Assembly: GCA_965240335.1 (NCBI GenBank)
Contig: CBDEKM010000018.1
Span: 73,417 to 137,416, forward strand
Reading direction: 5' to 3'
From: a bacterium
GTDB taxonomy: Bacteria > JAAXHH01
Length of the DNA: 64,000 nt
A model generated the notes under the pieces. The model ran no database searches. It saw only the letters and a program-made list of their open reading frames with translations, and was not told the DNA's origin. The translations under genes and the position numbers were made by a program. This document shows, in pieces, positions 5,984 to 47,355 of the stretch. The number at the start of each line of letters is the position of its first letter. Position 1 is the first letter of the stretch.

Positions 5984-7276
5984 CTACCCGGCGGCGTCCT
6001 GGGCGCACTGCACCCGGGGGATGACGTAGGGCCCTTTCGGAACGACGGCGATGGTGGCGTCACTGCCATGGCGCTCAAGGGCTCGCGCTATGCCGGCCTC
6101 GACGGATGGGACCGGTTCGACGAGGCAATCCCGCACATCGTCGTCATTCAGGCCGTCCGTATAGAGGTATATCTGTCCCTTCTTCAACGCTTTTACCAGT
6201 TCTTCGATTTCCCACTGGTCGATGGTGAATACGCCCGGTTGCTGGATCGATTCGAGAAAGGCGTCGATATCCGTTGTCATCCGCAGCAGTCCCTCGAATT
6301 CCGCGCTTCCGATCCCATCGGCGCATCCGGCCGCGATGACGATGGATCCGCCCTCCCTGAGAATGTCCAGCACCCCGACCATACCCTTCACTGCCTGGTA
6401 GAACGTAGTATCCAGGGGATAGCCGGCTGAAGAGGTCACGACGATGTCCACCGGTTCCTCGACACTGGCAACCACCATGCTGTCCACATGGCTGACCCCG
6501 TGCAGGTGGGCCTGCTCGAGCTCGCCGGCGAACACCCCGGTAATACGTCGGTCCTCGTCCAGGGACACGTTGAGGATGAAATCGACACCGGCACGCCGGG
6601 CGATTTCCAGGGATGCCTCGTGGAGTGGGTTGCCGTCGAGCACACCCGTCGTGGCGCGGGGATGTTCCAGGATCTTCGGTCCGTGAAGGTATTCGATCGT
6701 CTCCACGCCCACCAGTCCGGGCGCGACCAGCTTGCGCCCACCCGAATAGCCGGCCATGAAGTGGGGTTCGATCAACCCGGTCAGCACCTTGAGATCGCTT
6801 TCGACGTAACGGCGGTCCACGTGGATCGGGATCCCGGTACTCGTGGTCCCGAGATGGGCCTGCTGCGCTCCGATTCGCGCCCGGTGGTTTACAACGGGAT
6901 AGCGGTCGACCACGGCGCCGGTCAGCGTCTCGCGAAGCTGGGCTTCGTCCATGGGGGCGTGCAGTCCTGTGGCAACCAGGAGGGTGATATCCTTCGGCGC
7001 CAGCCCGCTTCGTTCCAGGCTTTCCAGCAGGGGCGGCAGAATGATGTCGTGGGGCACGGGCCGCGTGATGTCGGAAACGACCACGCAGGCATTCCGGCGT
7101 CCAGTGGCTAGTACTTCGAGCGGCGGCCCCGCTACGGGCTGACGAATCGCATCCCGGGTCGCTGCCACGGGATCATCCAGCGGCGGCGTTTCCCGCATGT
7201 TAAGGACTGCTACGAGGTTTTCGTCCGGAACGCGTACGTTGACCCCGGATTTGTGATAATCGAGTTTGATGTTCAT
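5984..7276 (-). CDS. LarA-family protein (DUF2088; nickel-pincer cofactor-dependent 2-hydroxyacid racemase/epimerase family)
   Basis: 430 aa; N-terminal LarA-like domain and overall length typical of lactate racemase homologues; no larB/larC/larE in the window. Confidence 0.75.
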   Translation of the reverse strand: MNIKLDYHKSGVNVRVPDENLVAVLNMRETPPLDDPVAATRDAIRQPVAGPPLEVLATGRRNACVVVSDITRPVPHDIILPPLLESLERSGLAPKDITLLVATGLHAPMDEAQLRETLTGAVVDRYPVVNHRARIGAQQAHLGTTSTGIPIHVDRRYVESDLKVLTGLIEPHFMAGYSGGRKLVAPGLVGVETIEYLHGPKILEHPRATTGVLDGNPLHEASLEIARRAGVDFILNVSLDEDRRITGVFAGELEQAHLHGVSHVDSMVVASVEEPVDIVVTSSAGYPLDTTFYQAVKGMVGVLDILREGGSIVIAAGCADGIGSAEFEGLLRMTTDIDAFLESIQQPGVFTIDQWEIEELVKALKKGQIYLYTDGLNDDDVRDCLVEPVPSVEAGIARALERHGSDATIAVVPKGPYVIPRVQCAQDAAG

Positions 7277-37134: not shown

Positions 37135-38181
37135 ATGAGACCGATGATTCACTTCATGAGGCGTATGCAGACGCTGTTTCCGCTGACCCTGGGCCTGTTT
37201 ATTATAGGAATGGGTTGCGGGGGGACAGCGCCTCCCGACGACAACCGGCTCGTGATCTCCATGATCGCCAAGAGCACGACCAATCCCGTGTTCCTTTCTT
37301 CCCGTACCGGCGCGGAGGCCGCCGCTCGAGCGCTTTCGGATGAGCACGGCATCGACATCGTGATCGACTGGCGCACGCCGCCGACGGAGGACGGCCAGGT
37401 CCAGGCCCAGCGCATCGCGCAGGCGGTGAACGAAGGCGCCGACGTGGTCCTGATCTCCTGTTCGGATGCCGCCAAGGTTACAGGCGCCATCAATGACGCG
37501 GTAGACCGGGGTGTGCCGGTCATGACCTTCGACAGCGATGCGCCCGATTCCCGGCGGTTCGCCTTCTTCGGCGTGGACGACATCAAGACCGGCGGACTGA
37601 TCATGGAAGAACTGGCCGTGGCGATGAACGGCAAGGGCCGCGTGGCCATCCTCGCGGGCAACCAGAACGCCCCGAATCTGCGCAGACGCGTAGAAGGGGT
37701 CCTGCAGAAGGCCGCGGAGTACCCGGACATCTCGATCGTCGGGACCTTCTTCCACATCGAAACCCCCCAGGACGCCGCCGCCGAAGTGGTGCGGGTCAAC
37801 AATGCCTACCCGGACATCGAAGGATGGGCCATGGTCGGTGGATGGGCGCTGTTCACCCAGACCCTGCTGACCGACCTGGACCCCGAACGAATGAAGATCA
37901 TCTCCGTCGACGCGCTGCCGCCCCAGCTGACTTACATCGAACAGGGCATCGTGCCTGTGCTCTGGGGACAGCCCACCTACCTGTGGGGATACGAATCCGT
38001 CCGCCTGATCGTCGAGAAGATCCACCTGAAGCAGGACGTGGCCGTCATCAATCCGCTCGAGCTGGTCCACGTGTCGCAGAAGAACCTCGGAGAATGGGCG
38101 AAGATGCTCCAGGGATGGGGATTCACGGATGTACCCGAACGGTACCTGCAGATGGAGGAACCGGCGGCTTCGGGCGACTGA
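37135..38181 (+). CDS. sugar ABC transporter substrate-binding lipoprotein (RbsB/periplasmic-binding-protein type I)
   Basis: 348 aa; lipobox (FIIGMGCGG); PBP type-1 fold. Confidence 0.8.
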   Translation: MRPMIHFMRRMQTLFPLTLGLFIIGMGCGGTAPPDDNRLVISMIAKSTTNPVFLSSRTGAEAAARALSDEHGIDIVIDWRTPPTEDGQVQAQRIAQAVNEGADVVLISCSDAAKVTGAINDAVDRGVPVMTFDSDAPDSRRFAFFGVDDIKTGGLIMEELAVAMNGKGRVAILAGNQNAPNLRRRVEGVLQKAAEYPDISIVGTFFHIETPQDAAAEVVRVNNAYPDIEGWAMVGGWALFTQTLLTDLDPERMKIISVDALPPQLTYIEQGIVPVLWGQPTYLWGYESVRLIVEKIHLKQDVAVINPLELVHVSQKNLGEWAKMLQGWGFTDVPERYLQMEEPAASGD

Positions 38182-38234
38182 CCAAACCGCCGCCCCGAAC
38201 GCTCGACTCAGGCGACTTATTTCCCGGTGACACC

Positions 38235-39734
38235 ATGGACCATGACCCTCCGCACCCCTACATCGAATTCGAACGGATCTCCAAGCGCTTTCCCAGCGTG
38301 ACCGCACTCGACGAGGTATCCTTCGGTATAGAAGCGGGTACCTGTCACGCCGTGGTCGGTGAAAACGGCGCGGGGAAAAGCACGCTGGGCCGGATCCTGA
38401 CCGGAATCTACGATCTCGACAGTGGACAGATTCGCATAGATGGGCGACCCGCGCAGTTGAATGAACCACGGGACGCCCTGGACATGGGCATCGGCATGGT
38501 CCACCAGGAACTCGTATTCTGCGAGAACCTGTCCGTGGCCGAGAACCTCTGCCTGGGCGCCCTGCCCGGCAAAGCCGGATTCGTATCCGATCGGAAGATG
38601 GAAGACCGGGCCAGGAACATGCTTGCGGCGGTCGACGTGGACATGGACGTGGGAACGCCCATCGGTGAACTGCCGGTCGCCCAGCAGCAACTCGTCCAGG
38701 TCGCGGCGGCCCTTGGCAGCGGCGCCCGCGTGATCGTCTTTGACGAACCGACCAGCAGCCTGTCTCACGTGGAAGCCGAACGGCTGCGGGAGAACATCCG
38801 GCATCTCAAGGCGAAGGGCGTGACGTCGATCTACATATCCCACGACCTGGACGAGATCTTCCGCCTGTGCGATTTCGTGACGGTACTTCGCGACGGCCGG
38901 CACGTGGCTACCCGGCCGGTCTTCGAACTCGACCGGTCCACGCTGATCAACCTGATGATCGGGCGCACTTTCGAGGCCTACTTCCCTTCCCACGTGGAAA
39001 CAGAACCCGGCGATGAGATGCTGGACGTGGACGGACTTTCCAGTTCGGGCAAGTTCGAGAACGTGTCCTTCTCGGTACGGTCCGGGGAGGTACTCGCCCT
39101 GGCCGGCCTGGTAGGCGCCGGCCGGACCGAAGTGCTGCAGGCCGTATTCGGGTTGGATCCCTTGGCCACGGGGCGGATCCGCGTAGCCGGCCGGCCTGTA
39201 AACATCAGGCATCCTATCGACGCGATGCGGACAGGCATCGGGCTCGTGCCCGAAGAACGGAAGCGATACGGTCTCGTCCTGTCCCTCAAAGTAGAGCAAA
39301 ACATCGGCCTTCCCACCCTGACCCGCCGGTCCGAATTCGGGTGGATCCGCGGCAAACGGGAAGGAGACCTGGCGCGGGAATACGTTAAGCGGCTATCGGT
39401 GCGTCCGGACGATGTCCGGTATGAAACGGCGGGGTTGTCTGGAGGCAATCAGCAGAAGGTGGTCCTGGCCAAGTGGCTGGCCGCTCGGTGCCCGGTCCTG
39501 CTGATCGACGAACCCACCCGGGGCGTGGACGTGGGCGCCAAATCGGAAATGCATGCCCTGATCGACGAATTGGCCCACGAAGGCACGGCCATTGTGCTCG
39601 TGTCGAGCGAGTTACCGGAGGTGCTCAACCTTTCGACGCGGATCATGGTGCTCCGTGCGGGATGTATTGCGGGCGAACTGTCCCGCGAAGAAGCGGACCA
39701 GGGCACGGTGATGCGGATGATGGCGGGGATGTAA
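38235..39734 (+). CDS. sugar ABC transporter ATP-binding protein, tandem ABC domains (RbsA/MglA type)
   Basis: ORF 37824, but the in-frame N-terminal part overlaps the SBP. ATG 38235 (MDHDPPHPYIEFERISKRF...). Walker A GENGAGKST; second ABC domain with LSGGNQQKV. Confidence 0.85.
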   Translation: MDHDPPHPYIEFERISKRFPSVTALDEVSFGIEAGTCHAVVGENGAGKSTLGRILTGIYDLDSGQIRIDGRPAQLNEPRDALDMGIGMVHQELVFCENLSVAENLCLGALPGKAGFVSDRKMEDRARNMLAAVDVDMDVGTPIGELPVAQQQLVQVAAALGSGARVIVFDEPTSSLSHVEAERLRENIRHLKAKGVTSIYISHDLDEIFRLCDFVTVLRDGRHVATRPVFELDRSTLINLMIGRTFEAYFPSHVETEPGDEMLDVDGLSSSGKFENVSFSVRSGEVLALAGLVGAGRTEVLQAVFGLDPLATGRIRVAGRPVNIRHPIDAMRTGIGLVPEERKRYGLVLSLKVEQNIGLPTLTRRSEFGWIRGKREGDLAREYVKRLSVRPDDVRYETAGLSGGNQQKVVLAKWLAARCPVLLIDEPTRGVDVGAKSEMHALIDELAHEGTAIVLVSSELPEVLNLSTRIMVLRAGCIAGELSREEADQGTVMRMMAGM

Positions 39735-39984
39735 CGGGAGGTGGGGTTACAACACTGATCCTTTTATCAGATCGGATTTTCTATCAACCTATATATCCGT
39801 AGAATGCAAAAGCCTTTCCCAAATCCCTGTATTGTAATTGTTAACGATTTTTTGATCGCTGAAATGACTAATCAGAAAGTAACTGGTGAATACAGAACTA
39901 ATCTGAAACTTAACTGAGTCAGAAGAACACCTGGTTGATTGATTCAATGGAAACCTTGTAAACGAAGCTAAGGAATGACTTGAA

Positions 39985-40632
39985 GTGAATCTTACTTCCA
40001 ACGAGATCATATCAATTATTCTGTTTCTACTGCCTGGATTTGTAACAGCGGCGATTTTCTTCAGTTACACCTCACATCTCAAACCCAGCCCGTTTGAACG
40101 AGTAATCCAGGCATTGGTTTTCACGATTGTGAACCACGCAACGGTAGAGGTCATACGATTGTGTGGAAAGGTTATTCAATGGTTTTCTGTGCAGATGGAT
40201 GTCGTTTGGATTCGTGTGACTGTAACACAAGTGGCGGTGGTATTGGATTTGATCCCAGACACATTGCTATATGTTACATTTGCAGTTTTGCTTGGTCTTA
40301 CTGCTGTTTATATTGCTAACAATGACACATTCCACCGAATACTTCGCAGATACAGGCTCACTGTGGAGGATTCCTACCCGTCGGAATGGTATTCTGCTTT
40401 CGCGCAAAATAGATCTTATGTCGTTCTACATCTTATTGGCCAGAGACGACTATATGGTTGGCCAAAAGAATGGTCCGGCAACCCAGACAGTGGCCATTTG
40501 TTGATTGCAGAATGTGAATGGCTAGACGGAGATCAGCAAATTCCAGTAAATGGAGTTGATACTATGCTGATACCGGTATCCGATGTGGAAATGGTAGAAT
40601 TTGTAGAGTTAAATCAAGAAGATCAGGAGTAG
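39985..40632 (+). CDS. hypothetical protein, N-terminal 2-3 TM helices + ~100-aa soluble acidic C-terminal domain; encoded in an AT-rich island
   Basis: 215 aa, GTG start (VNLTSNEIISIILFLLPGFVTAAIFFSY...); ~42% GC versus ~64% for neighbours; no recognisable family. Confidence 0.55.
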   Translation: MNLTSNEIISIILFLLPGFVTAAIFFSYTSHLKPSPFERVIQALVFTIVNHATVEVIRLCGKVIQWFSVQMDVVWIRVTVTQVAVVLDLIPDTLLYVTFAVLLGLTAVYIANNDTFHRILRRYRLTVEDSYPSEWYSAFAQNRSYVVLHLIGQRRLYGWPKEWSGNPDSGHLLIAECEWLDGDQQIPVNGVDTMLIPVSDVEMVEFVELNQEDQE

Positions 40633-40635
40633 ACC

Positions 40636-40752
40636 ATGGCTAAGGAACCAGTTTTTCCTTTGAGAAAACCTATCAGTACAAGAGGGACAACACCAAAACC
40701 ACCAAATGTAGTCAAACCACCGCCGCCACCACCACCACCGCCTAAAAAGTAA
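40636..40752 (+). CDS. 38-aa proline-rich peptide MAKEPVFPLRKPISTRGTTPKPPNVVKPPPPPPPPPKK
   Basis: ATG 3 nt after the upstream stop with AGGAG 7 nt upstream (translational coupling); nine consecutive Pro codons; AT-rich codon usage like the upstream gene; below the ORF-track size cutoff. Confidence 0.4.
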   Translation: MAKEPVFPLRKPISTRGTTPKPPNVVKPPPPPPPPPKK

Positions 40753-40776
40753 TGGTTAAACAAGGTGTGATGATTA

Positions 40777-41595
40777 TTACATATCCCGCTTCGGCGGCGC
40801 GGCCGCGACCCCTTCCATGCCGCCGCTCACCCGAAGGACTACTCCGGTAATCCAGCCCGCCGCGGGACTGCAGAGGAACGCCACGCCGTTGGCGATGTCC
40901 TCCGGATCGCCCCACCTGCCCAGGGGAATGGCGCCGCGGATGCGTTCGATCATCTGGTCTTCGGTCAACCCCAGTGTTTTGCTGCGCTGGGCCATGTTCG
41001 ACCGGTTGAATTCGGTGTAGACCGGACCCGGGCAGACGGCGTTCACCCGGACTCCATACGCCGCCAGTTCAAGCGCCAGCGTTCGTGTGAGACTGATTAC
41101 CCCCTCCTTGGCCACGTTGTACGCCGCGACCAGGGCCGCAGGATTCTGTCCGTTGATGGAAGAGATGTTCACGATACAACCTGATTCCTGCCGTTCCATG
41201 ATCCCGCCCGCGGCCCGGCAGCAGTAAAACGTCCCGGTCAGCGTAACCCGCATGACCCGTTCCCACTCCGCATCGTCCAGTTCGACGACGGGCGTTACCT
41301 TCTGGCCAACCCCGGCGTTGTTTACCAGTATGTCCAGCCGGCCATGGTCGTCGTTGATCGCACTGAAAAACGCATTAACCGAAACGCTGTCCGCCACGTT
41401 CAGGTACCCGGGAACCACCTCCAACCCCTTCTCTTGAAGCTTCCTGGCTTCTTCTCCCACCTTCTCGCGCTGCAAGTCCGCCATCAGCACGGTCGCGCCA
41501 TTCCGCGCCAGCCGTTCAGAAATGCCCAGTCCAAGCCCCTGCGCCGCGCCGGTCACGACGGCTATGGTTCCGTCTATACGAAGTGGGTCGTCCAT
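40777..41595 (-). CDS. SDR-family oxidoreductase (3-oxoacyl-ACP reductase-like)
   Basis: ORF to 41694; ATG 41595 (MDDPLRIDGTIAVVTGAAQGLGLGI...) with AAAGGA upstream; TGxxxGxG, NNAG, YxxxK. Confidence 0.85.
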   Translation of the reverse strand: MDDPLRIDGTIAVVTGAAQGLGLGISERLARNGATVLMADLQREKVGEEARKLQEKGLEVVPGYLNVADSVSVNAFFSAINDDHGRLDILVNNAGVGQKVTPVVELDDAEWERVMRVTLTGTFYCCRAAGGIMERQESGCIVNISSINGQNPAALVAAYNVAKEGVISLTRTLALELAAYGVRVNAVCPGPVYTEFNRSNMAQRSKTLGLTEDQMIERIRGAIPLGRWGDPEDIANGVAFLCSPAAGWITGVVLRVSGGMEGVAAAPPKRDM

Positions 41596-47280: not shown

Positions 47281-47355
47281 TCGGGGTGGGGGGATTTGAA
47301 CCCCCGACCCCCTGCTCCCAAAGCAGGTGCGCTGACCGGACTGCGCTACACCCCG
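47281..47355 (-). tRNA. tRNA-Pro (anticodon UGG)
   Basis: Minus strand CGGGGTGTAGCGCAGTCCGGTCAGCGCACCTGCTTTGGGAGCAGGGGGTCGGGGGTTCAAATCCCCCCACCCCGA; anticodon loop UUUGGGA. Confidence 0.85.

Follow-up and report, generated by a model that had tools for sequence, protein, structure and literature searches.

An AT-rich bacterial island that pairs a DUF6338 membrane protein with a probable polyproline microprotein partner

Why does a stretch of about 1 kb between two convergent genes keep a base composition so different from that of its surroundings, and what might the two genes that it carries do? The window analysed here is a 64,000-nucleotide stretch of contig CBDEKM010000018.1 (assembly GCA_965240335.1, bacterial lineage JAAXHH01), and the AT-rich island, a feature without strand, occupies its positions 39735..40776, between the stop codon of a sugar ABC ATPase gene (39732-39734) and that of a minus-strand SDR gene (40777-40779). 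The GC content of the island is 0.417, as against 0.626 and 0.611 in the 2-kb flanks; in 200-nt windows it is 0.355-0.455 inside 39735-40776 and 0.60-0.69 on either side. An earlier note, made from the letters of this DNA, had described an abrupt fall in GC exactly between the two convergent stops and AT-rich codons foreign to the surroundings. Measurement bears out both points: GC falls from ~0.62 to 0.42, and the GC content at third codon positions (GC3) is 0.41 in the first open reading frame (ORF) of the island, ORF1, and 0.26 in the second, ORF2, versus 0.78 in the flanking ABC ATPase gene and 0.77 in the SDR gene.

The explanation that we favour is tentative, and as a whole falls a little short of an even chance. 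The island would be a self-contained accessory cassette of a mobile type, whose two genes act together as proteins. ORF1 would be a DUF6338 inner-membrane protein with an acidic, aromatic-rich cytoplasmic barrel of the Sm-like kind. ORF2, made by coupled translation from the shared mRNA, would be a basic microprotein with three proline motifs and a high content of polyproline-II helix; it would attach in trans to the Sm-like domain, a detachable C-terminal tail that controls the state (assembly or activity) of the membrane protein. The pair would have a role in genetic conflict, as an exclusion-type or abortive-type membrane effector checked or tuned by the peptide. These parts are not of equal strength. 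The architecture of the island and the conserved pairing of ORF1 with ORF2 we regard as close to secure, and the evidence for them is given first.

A conserved pair of coupled genes

ORF1 (39985..40632, plus strand) encodes 215 amino acids from a GTG start, which is backed by an ATG at the same position in two orthologous loci (L005 and L008); a Shine-Dalgarno sequence, AAGGA, stands at 39970-39974, 10 nt upstream of the GTG. The product matches Pfam PF19865 (DUF6338) over its full length (E 3.7e-14, 53.2 bits versus a gathering cutoff of 26.5), with residues 8-211 aligned to positions 8-204 of the 205-position profile. The earlier note had seen two to three N-terminal transmembrane (TM) helices and an acidic C-terminal domain, a description that holds, and had recognised no family, which is superseded by this clear membership. 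An indexed search returned 1474 homologues and an exhaustive HMMER search 944 clusters at 50% identity; all 120 listed homologues of ORF1 carry the precomputed PF19865 domain. The invariant motifs of the family alignment include FLLPGF, QALxFT, SYPSEWYSAF, LHLxGxRRLYGWPxEW, GH and EWL, which ORF1 shares with hundreds of relatives, together with NxDxxHRxLR and VEMVEF. The Pfam entry gives no function, fold or partner gene; the Sm-like fold, the microprotein and the mobility of the family are added here.

ORF2 (40636..40752, plus strand) encodes 38 amino acids from an ATG start, MAKEPVFPLRKPISTRGTTPKPPNVVKPPPPPPPPPKK, with a charge of +7; it opens with a MAKEP motif, has TPKP at its centre and closes with VK-P9-KK. 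Nine proline codons in a row (P28-P36, 40717..40743, plus strand; CCA, CCG and CCT) are followed by two lysine codons and the stop. The ORF2 ATG at 40636 lies 3 nt past the ORF1 stop (TAG, 40630-40632), and its Shine-Dalgarno sequence, AGGAG (40625..40629, plus strand), lies inside the last codons of ORF1, a layout that the earlier note had described and that is confirmed at these coordinates. This placement points to translational coupling from ORF1 to ORF2. Readthrough of the TAG into an ORF1-ORF2 fusion, for which ORF2 is in frame in the window, was considered and rejected as a general mechanism: the two ORFs are in frame at 48 of 80 loci, and many ORF2 starts overlap ORF1 out of frame.

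The same arrangement recurs widely. A one-genome-per-species scan brought up 301 relatives, from which 80 loci were retained; these are found in Latescibacterota, Binatia, Chloroflexota, Nitrospinota, Nitrospirota, Acidobacteriota and Thermodesulfobacteriota, and further in Alpha-, Beta- and Gammaproteobacteria, Planctomycetota, Leptospira, Opitutales, Rhodothermales and Marinifilum. A basic, proline-rich small ORF directly follows the DUF6338 gene at no fewer than 80 of 86 genome loci, in at least 12 phyla. It is 26-57 amino acids long and starts between -23 and about +30 nt from the DUF6338 stop, a distance of +3 being the commonest (35/80). The peptides follow the consensus MAKEP[NT]PPPS[RK]R ... 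G[VL]SPKP ... [VR]KPPPPP[P/A/L]PPPKK, are 36% proline with a mean charge of +6.9, and have a longest proline run of median 8 (range 3-13); for comparison, the longest proline run is 8 in Escherichia coli and 4 in Bacillus subtilis (review PMC13602936). Interrupted runs such as RPPAPAAPPPKR or APAAPPPKR are common among the homologues. Since such interruptions are tolerated, the conserved trait is a basic polyproline-II peptide with its three motifs, and not a continuous proline tract for stalling.

Peptides of this kind have been detected as proteins. In Pseudomonas stutzeri ATCC 14405, the small proteins SEP1, SEP5 and SEP2 adjoin the DUF6338 gene Pstu14405_RS12030 and were found by digest-free mass spectrometry with 44-114 peptide-spectrum matches (PMC10433244). 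SEP1 ends in ...APPPPKK and SEP2 in ...PPPPPKKGG; all were detected in cell extracts, and the DUF6338 protein itself was undetected (PMC10433244). The operon shares with the island a DUF6338 gene and, behind it, basic small ORFs that are rich in proline and have PPPPKK ends; it differs in that there are three peptides in tandem, the proline runs of which are shorter. In that study the SEPs were considered species-specific and possibly de novo genes. The sequence comparison shows that the P. stutzeri SEPs belong instead to a peptide class that is paired with DUF6338 across phyla, which overturns the sole published view of them. In our literature search DUF6338 was mentioned in PMC10433244 only, and nothing relevant was found on the peptide or fold themes.

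The number of genes at these loci varies. A single DUF6338 gene is followed by three to four tandem paralogous, proline-rich basic small ORFs in L094, L095/L096, L101 and L114 (prophage-type; DUF6338 at 6001), and these arrays in prophage-type contigs mirror the three SEPs of P. stutzeri. Two cassette copies per genome occur as L041 and L084 (both on OZ243977.1) and, in Vibrio cholerae N16961, as Q9KMN5 and VC_A0365. Truncated copies of ORF1 are found in L030, L106, L122 and VC_A0365.

An ORF this short and of such low complexity might be no functional protein at all, but a chance ORF, the complement of an antisense polyglycine gene, or a ribosome-stalling element acting in cis. Polyproline does stall ribosomes (PMC13602936). 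One public gene call (L006, 5639-5761, minus strand, 40 amino acids) reads the polyproline ORF from the opposite strand as polyglycine, and synonymous changes within a CCN run are silent in the antisense GGN frame as well. Against this, the N-terminal and central motifs, the start codon, the Shine-Dalgarno sequence and the coupling are conserved across phyla; homologous peptides are seen in mass spectrometry; natural fusions continue in the plus-strand frame; and ORF2 lies downstream of the gene that a stalling element would supposedly regulate. The proline codons vary synonymously (CCA, CCG, CCT, CCC) in the orthologous loci examined, and across 8-9 orthologous loci the ratio of nonsynonymous to synonymous change (dN/dS) is 0.10-0.32 for ORF1 and 0.01-0.18 for ORF2; ORF2 is a real gene, and it evolves under purifying selection. 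The antisense ORF (window 40623-40763, minus strand) is absent or shorter than 25 amino acids in 46 of 78 loci. Because it is so poorly conserved, the minus-strand call in L006 is a strand mis-annotation, and this error probably recurs wherever the peptide occurs. A nonfunctional ORF2 is thus largely refuted, ruled out for the most part already, and we give it almost no credence.

The peptide family is almost wholly unannotated. A collection of 15 billion proteins lacks the exact ORF2 sequence, which was thus never called as a gene, and most of the homologous peptides; those present are the V. cholerae peptide, labelled 'conserved hypothetical protein', and one Binatia peptide. The pairing defines a conserved microprotein family, and a widespread DUF (the 944 clusters above) gains a fold, an inferred topology, a near-obligate partner and a testable mechanism.

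An acidic Sm-like domain and its putative ligand

An AlphaFold2 model of ORF1 (predicted local distance difference test, pLDDT, 83) has helices at residues 5-28, 36-71, 74-89, 92-112, 115-122 and 132-141, and five to six strands at 145-207. The membrane region, drawn from the model helices, hydropathy and positive-inside counts, spans residues 5-112 (39997..40320, plus strand) with TM1 at ~8-27 (containing FLLPGF), TM2 at ~40-59 (QALxFT) and TM3 at ~93-111. Hydropathy peaks at 8-26 and 93-111, TM2 being weakly hydrophobic, and the counts of lysine plus arginine are 0.0 at the N-terminus, 2.1 in loop 1, 1.4 in loop 2 and 3.9 after TM3. From the hydropathy and these counts, a topology of three TM helices with the N-terminus outside, the C-terminus inside and the Sm-like domain in the cytoplasm is probable. 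A similarity to LrgA or holins, suggested by two names from the Joint Genome Institute (JGI), was rejected, the matches (E 0.06-0.15) falling below the threshold.

The segment from the end of TM2 to the start of TM3, residues 53-96 (40141..40272, plus strand), evolves fast. Its dN/dS is 0.43, with a proportion of nonsynonymous differences (pN) of up to 0.5, as against 0.08-0.09 in residues 1-52 and 129-215, while the proportion of synonymous differences (pS) is uniform over the gene; outside residues 53-96 taken together, values of 0.08-0.17 were obtained. Nucleotide identity among orthologues falls to 40-60% across the segment, which includes a clade-specific insertion and varies in length across the DUF6338 family. 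Residues 53-96 probably face the periplasm, and may form an exposed loop under diversifying pressure.

Residues ~129-208 (40369..40608, plus strand) are modelled as a small beta-barrel, in which a helix at 132-141 is followed by five to six bent strands. An N-terminal alpha-helix followed by five strongly bent antiparallel strands is the arrangement of the Sm/LSm-like fold, to which the model assigns the domain, and the best fold matches of the barrel are Sm proteins rather than SH3 domains. Residues W135, Y136, F139, H149, W159, P160, W163, G170, H171 and W179 are invariant. The profile searches gave no LSM or Hfq match (none in Pfam at E<=1, none in the search of Protein Data Bank profiles at E<=10). 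Compared with Sm, LSm and Hfq proteins, including the peptide-binding LSm14 (with 4E-T, 6f9w) and the EDC3 LSm domain, the ORF1 domain thus differs in having no profile match, and also in being strongly acidic (-8 to -13; net charge ~-13 including the tail in ORF1, family mean -8.4) and tethered to three TM helices. Its strong negative charge argues against RNA binding. SH3-type barrels bind polyproline-II ligands flanked by basic residues; here the fold is Sm-like, and the putative ligand is the product of a separate, co-translated gene. In one orthologous locus (L011, 4001-4597), ORF1 lacks its last 17 residues in frame, the last beta-strand included, and the new stop is again followed, 3 nt on, by the start of ORF2; this could be a true deletion variant or an assembly artefact.

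Small barrels of the Sm and SH3 types, and LSm domains, are established peptide binders. Several observations suggest that the ORF2 peptide binds the Sm-like domain of its partner. Three natural fusions (P0142, P0147 and P0257) bear the peptide motifs as a C-terminal tail, and P0257 still holds ...KK-MAKKGSNPPPP... in frame. When P0147 is modelled with AlphaFold2, its linker (residues 201-230) receives a pLDDT of 53-56 and the terminal P8-AKK segment one of 80-83 despite an alignment depth near zero, values compatible with docking of the tail; a raised pLDDT of a rigid polyproline segment is no proof of docking. The charges of domain and peptide are complementary (-8.4 versus +6.9) and co-vary (r=-0.47, p ~9e-5, n=65, with no phylogenetic correction), and the barrel contains invariant Trp, Tyr and Phe residues. 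Taking fusions, model, charges and aromatic residues together, we lean towards binding, with modest confidence. The idea that the ends of long-tailed DUF6338 proteins mimic the peptide as a basic patch was rejected: 21% have a basic end, and the tails are on average acidic.

The topology of ORF1 and the fusions also bear on the possibility that ORF2 is an exported, proline-rich antimicrobial peptide of the bacteriocin type and that ORF1 confers immunity to it or exports it, one of the candidates of the earlier note. ORF2 is cationic and proline-rich like the ribosome-targeting proline-rich antimicrobial peptides, has a membrane partner, and such a role was raised for proline-rich small proteins by the authors of PMC10433244. 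However, the peptide starts with MAKEP and has no signal sequence, hydrophobic leader or double-glycine site, and neither the cassette nor its immediate surroundings contain a gene for an exporter, transporter or protease. The domain of the partner protein is predicted to lie in the cytoplasm, it is to that cytoplasmic C-terminus that the fusions attach the peptide, the peptides were found in cell extracts, and the usual PRP repeats are missing. We consider an exported antimicrobial very improbable.

Mobility of the family and possible roles of the pair

The DUF6338 gene is poorer in GC than its surroundings at 77 of the 80 genome loci (typically by 0.05-0.2) and at all 33 viral loci. In V. 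cholerae ATCC 14035 (L078, a contig of 1383 bp), both genes lie between a canonical V. cholerae repeat (VCR)/attC element (~385-505) and an attC-like end, ...GCGGCGTTA. The V. cholerae pair is thus a single superintegron cassette bounded by attC sites; pandemic V. cholerae carries Q9KMN5 (199 amino acids) and a truncated paralogue, VC_A0365 (135 amino acids). IMG/VR holds 33 prophage-type contigs with DUF6338, of which ~20 have the peptide ORF, singly or as a tandem array. Their neighbours include Q-like antiterminators, DNA methyltransferases, a RusA-type resolvase, VRR-NUC, a holin, a muramidase, Mu-like head genes and an integrase. In one lambdoid prophage (L095) the cassette lies on the opposite strand, between the resolvase and the Q antiterminator plus holin, which is a typical site for accessory genes (morons). 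A tblastn search of cultured phage genomes gave no DUF6338 match. The pairing across phyla, the integron cassette and the prophage accessory positions show clearly that the DUF6338 family spreads by horizontal transfer.

The sole plasmid match, in Paludisphaera PALBO2 (L089), is a long-tailed variant without a peptide. Its neighbours are an ATPase/S8-peptidase pair immediately upstream (L089 2472-5959), an integrase and ParDE. The ATP-binding and S8-peptidase genes may resemble the ietAS defence pair.

Because the pair travels as an integron cassette or prophage moron and is GC-poor in almost every host, a role in genetic conflict is the likeliest one for it, a role that we nonetheless hold doubtful. 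Abortive-infection-like and toxin-antitoxin-like roles are both possible. Type II toxin-antitoxin systems, abortive infection of the RexAB or Sucellos type, and defence systems made of a TM effector plus a sensor are likewise small autonomous cassettes with a membrane component. The DUF6338 pair resembles such two-gene membrane conflict modules in its integron, prophage-accessory and plasmid carriage and in being GC-poor relative to the host; it differs from them in having no homology to them and in being stably vertical in the clade of the window. The pair matched none of the characterised systems against which its membership was tested, and on these comparisons we rate it as lying outside their known kinds.

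Besides the limits on the docking model and on the charge correlation given above, several points weigh against the explanation that we favour. No defence family in PADLOC-DB v2.0.0 matches ORF1 or ORF2 at E<=1, and both are unmatched in PHROGs and NCBIfam. A long-tailed DUF6338 subtype exists without the peptide. The 117 genome neighbours are mostly unrelated metabolic genes, with a minority of restriction-modification or MADS genes (Type ISP/IIG 4, Type III methyltransferases 2-3, mad2/mad3 3-4), and no integrase or transposase is among the top neighbour families in ordinary genomes. In the clade of the window the cassette shows vertical inheritance at a housekeeping locus, under purifying selection that matches that of the neighbours, which is unusual for defence genes. 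Finally, the V. cholerae copies do not appear among the 16 cassettes that protected against phages in the N16961 screen of Darracq et al., which covered 88 cassettes, perhaps with neither copy, or no small ORF, among them; the comparison was made by locus tag for VC_A0365, the sources giving none for Q9KMN5. The active cassettes are 308, 322, 356, 366, 367-8, 374, 396, 399, 409, 410, 419, 441, 446-7, 450, 457 and 458. Identity with two named defence systems of the V. cholerae integron was also considered. Toutatis is excluded, since it consists of tutA and a methyltransferase (tutB), and Brigantia is probably excluded, since the cassette numbering and a 24.5-kb deletion set place it probably in VCA0396-0419.

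The proline runs invite a more specific reading, in which the pair is a toxin-antitoxin-like sensor of translation capacity. ORF1 would be a membrane-damaging toxin and ORF2 its neutralising peptide, the synthesis of which, with 8-13 consecutive prolines, would need elongation factor P (EF-P) and ample prolyl-tRNA; upon phage takeover, stress or proline starvation the peptide would be lost first, and ORF1, once freed, would bring about growth arrest or abortive infection. The cassette has the layout of a toxin-antitoxin system, with two translationally coupled genes of which the second is small; it occurs as an integron cassette and, on the plasmid, near ParDE, and toxin-antitoxin cassettes abound in sedentary integrons (preprint 10.1101/2024.07.02.601686). 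By the comparison of PMC13602936 such proline runs are extreme in a bacterium, and the P. stutzeri peptides are abundant, the DUF6338 protein being undetected. The AT-rich, rare codons of ORF1 are maintained, as expected if a dangerous protein must stay low, and truncated ORF1 copies occur (L030, L106, L122, VC_A0365). On the other side, the many interrupted runs weaken the case for obligatory stalling, the natural fusions join the would-be antitoxin covalently to the toxin, and the peptide is missing altogether from one DUF6338 subtype; searches of Pfam, NCBIfam and PADLOC brought up no homology to known toxins or antitoxins, and the dependence on EF-P is inferred. We judge this reading unlikely.

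A broader proposal joins this sensor to the binding model: a pan-bacterial, mobile two-component membrane system in which an acidic Sm-like domain is gated by a polyproline-II peptide encoded in trans, and in which EF-P-dependent synthesis links membrane integrity to how the ribosome fares, so that the pair would serve for abortive infection, exclusion or addiction. Its Sm-fold domain would then be the first in bacteria to act as a receptor for a proline-rich peptide. This proposal we regard as rather improbable. The proline runs of 8-13 residues are at or beyond the maximum of model bacterial proteomes, so that the mobile pair would be a natural probe of EF-P biology. Since pandemic V. cholerae, P. 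stutzeri and lambdoid prophages all carry the cassette, genetic experiments are feasible now. The Sm-like fold of DUF6338, its polyproline partner, its carriage by integrons and prophages and the compositional stasis set out below all appear to have gone undescribed so far.

History and composition of the island in its own clade

Nine related genomes carry the island at the same junction between the ABC ATPase and SDR genes. The relatives with 72-83% identity in ORF1 are metagenome-assembled genomes from sponges and corals labelled Latescibacterota or Gemmatimonadetes, and they share the gene order DUF4159, 112-aa gene, permease, binding protein, ABC ATPase, DUF6338, peptide, facing SDR gene. 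The earlier note had named host-like GC in relatives as what would speak against a foreign module; this does not come about, the relatives keeping a GC of ~0.415. The island GC is 0.415-0.418 at the same junction in L001, L002 and L005-L008, and L009-L011, which share the junction, have an ORF1 GC of 0.41-0.43 versus ~0.64 in the flanks. Orthologues of ORF1 have a GC3 of 0.38-0.41 and their flanks one of 0.73-0.87. Mean pS is ~0.48 in ORF1, along which it is uniform, and ~0.40 in the flanks, and the polarised synonymous changes of ORF1 are balanced between those from weak to strong pairs (W->S, 15) and those from strong to weak (S->W, 19).

The presence of the island at one site in nine relatives, the flank-like pS and the balanced changes show that it is old in this clade rather than a recent import that has yet to ameliorate. 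Its low GC is an equilibrium of its own that is maintained, and the island was already there in the ancestor of the clade. The earlier reading of a horizontally acquired module thus stands in part: the module is self-contained and coupled, its composition is foreign and its family mobile, whereas the sharing of one site by nine relatives and the flank-like pS speak against recent acquisition. The ORF1 GC3 of ~0.39, seen in the window and in L001 and L005-L011, has been stable over a synonymous divergence of ~0.5 in genomes with a GC3 of 0.73-0.87; recent changes in the flanking ABC gene show a strong S->W excess (31 W->S versus 124 S->W). Such compositional stasis could result from selection for AT-rich or rare codons, or from exemption from the force that raises GC3 in the host. 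A GC3 of ~0.39 held inside genomes of GC3 ~0.8 bears on how bacterial GC content is maintained, and serves as a warning that a compositional island need not mean recent transfer.

Between L001 and L008 the flanking ABC ATPase is 96% identical and ORF1 70%. Recombination or allelic exchange of ORF1 was rejected as the cause, pS being uniform and flank-like and the excess divergence nonsynonymous and within residues 53-96; the mismatch between ORF1 and flank identity arises because fast amino-acid evolution is confined to those residues. In L007 (5783-6263) the SDR gene is split into two ORFs, on a contig with 2x coverage, likely by a sequencing frameshift.

Inheritance of this kind would suit an ordinary physiological membrane complex, in which DUF6338 assembles on its Sm-like domain into a scaffold, or into a ring or channel like that of MscS, the microprotein being a subunit that supports or regulates it, in an envelope or stress role, and mobility reflects a useful accessory trait. 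Its points in favour are the nine genomes with vertical inheritance at one constant position amid genes for transport and metabolism and housekeeping-like purifying selection, the mostly metabolic neighbours elsewhere, and the lack of any match in the defence databases or among the active anti-phage cassettes of V. cholerae. The order of the parts, first TM helices and then an Sm-like beta domain, recalls the heptameric MscS-family channels, and the sole sequence matches among solved structures are to YnaI (E ~0.1). These matches are not significant and lie in peripheral TM helices, the wrong ones with respect to the beta domain; neither in sequence nor in full-length fold is there a significant match to the MscS family, and ORF1 lacks its alpha-beta domain. 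The patchy distribution over at least 12 phyla, the carriage in integron cassettes and at opposite-strand prophage accessory positions, a GC systematically under that of the host, and the varying copy number with truncated copies likewise tell against a physiological complex, which we think no likelier than the translation sensor. The conflict cassette set out at the beginning remains the explanation that we tentatively prefer.

The leader of the island (39735..39984, plus strand; 250 nt, AT-rich) presumably holds the cassette's own promoter. In an alignment of eight orthologues its conservation is patchy, with one CGATTTTT...AAAGACTAATCA block. A scan of the island for sigma-70 promoters and terminators gave nothing above chance, with no sigma-70 consensus in the leader, and an Rfam search of leader and island returned no family at E<=1. 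No integrase, no meaningful flanking repeat and no attC-like element was found around the island in the window, so that it lacks there the bounds of an integron cassette. The earlier note had likewise reported no integrase, tRNA or clear repeats at its flanks, which agrees with these searches; the weak similarity that it saw between the edges (atatatccg / acatatcccg) was neither recovered as a repeat nor conserved.

The nearest tRNA gene, 6.5 kb from ORF2 with its nine consecutive CCA/CCG/CCT codons, is a tRNA-Pro(UGG) (47281-47355, minus strand), probably by coincidence. The mechanically called ORF of the ABC ATPase (37824-39734) has 636 amino acids and every orthologue 499, and the true start is probably near 38235; the overlap with the upstream binding-protein ORF (37135-38181) exists only in the mechanical ORF listing.

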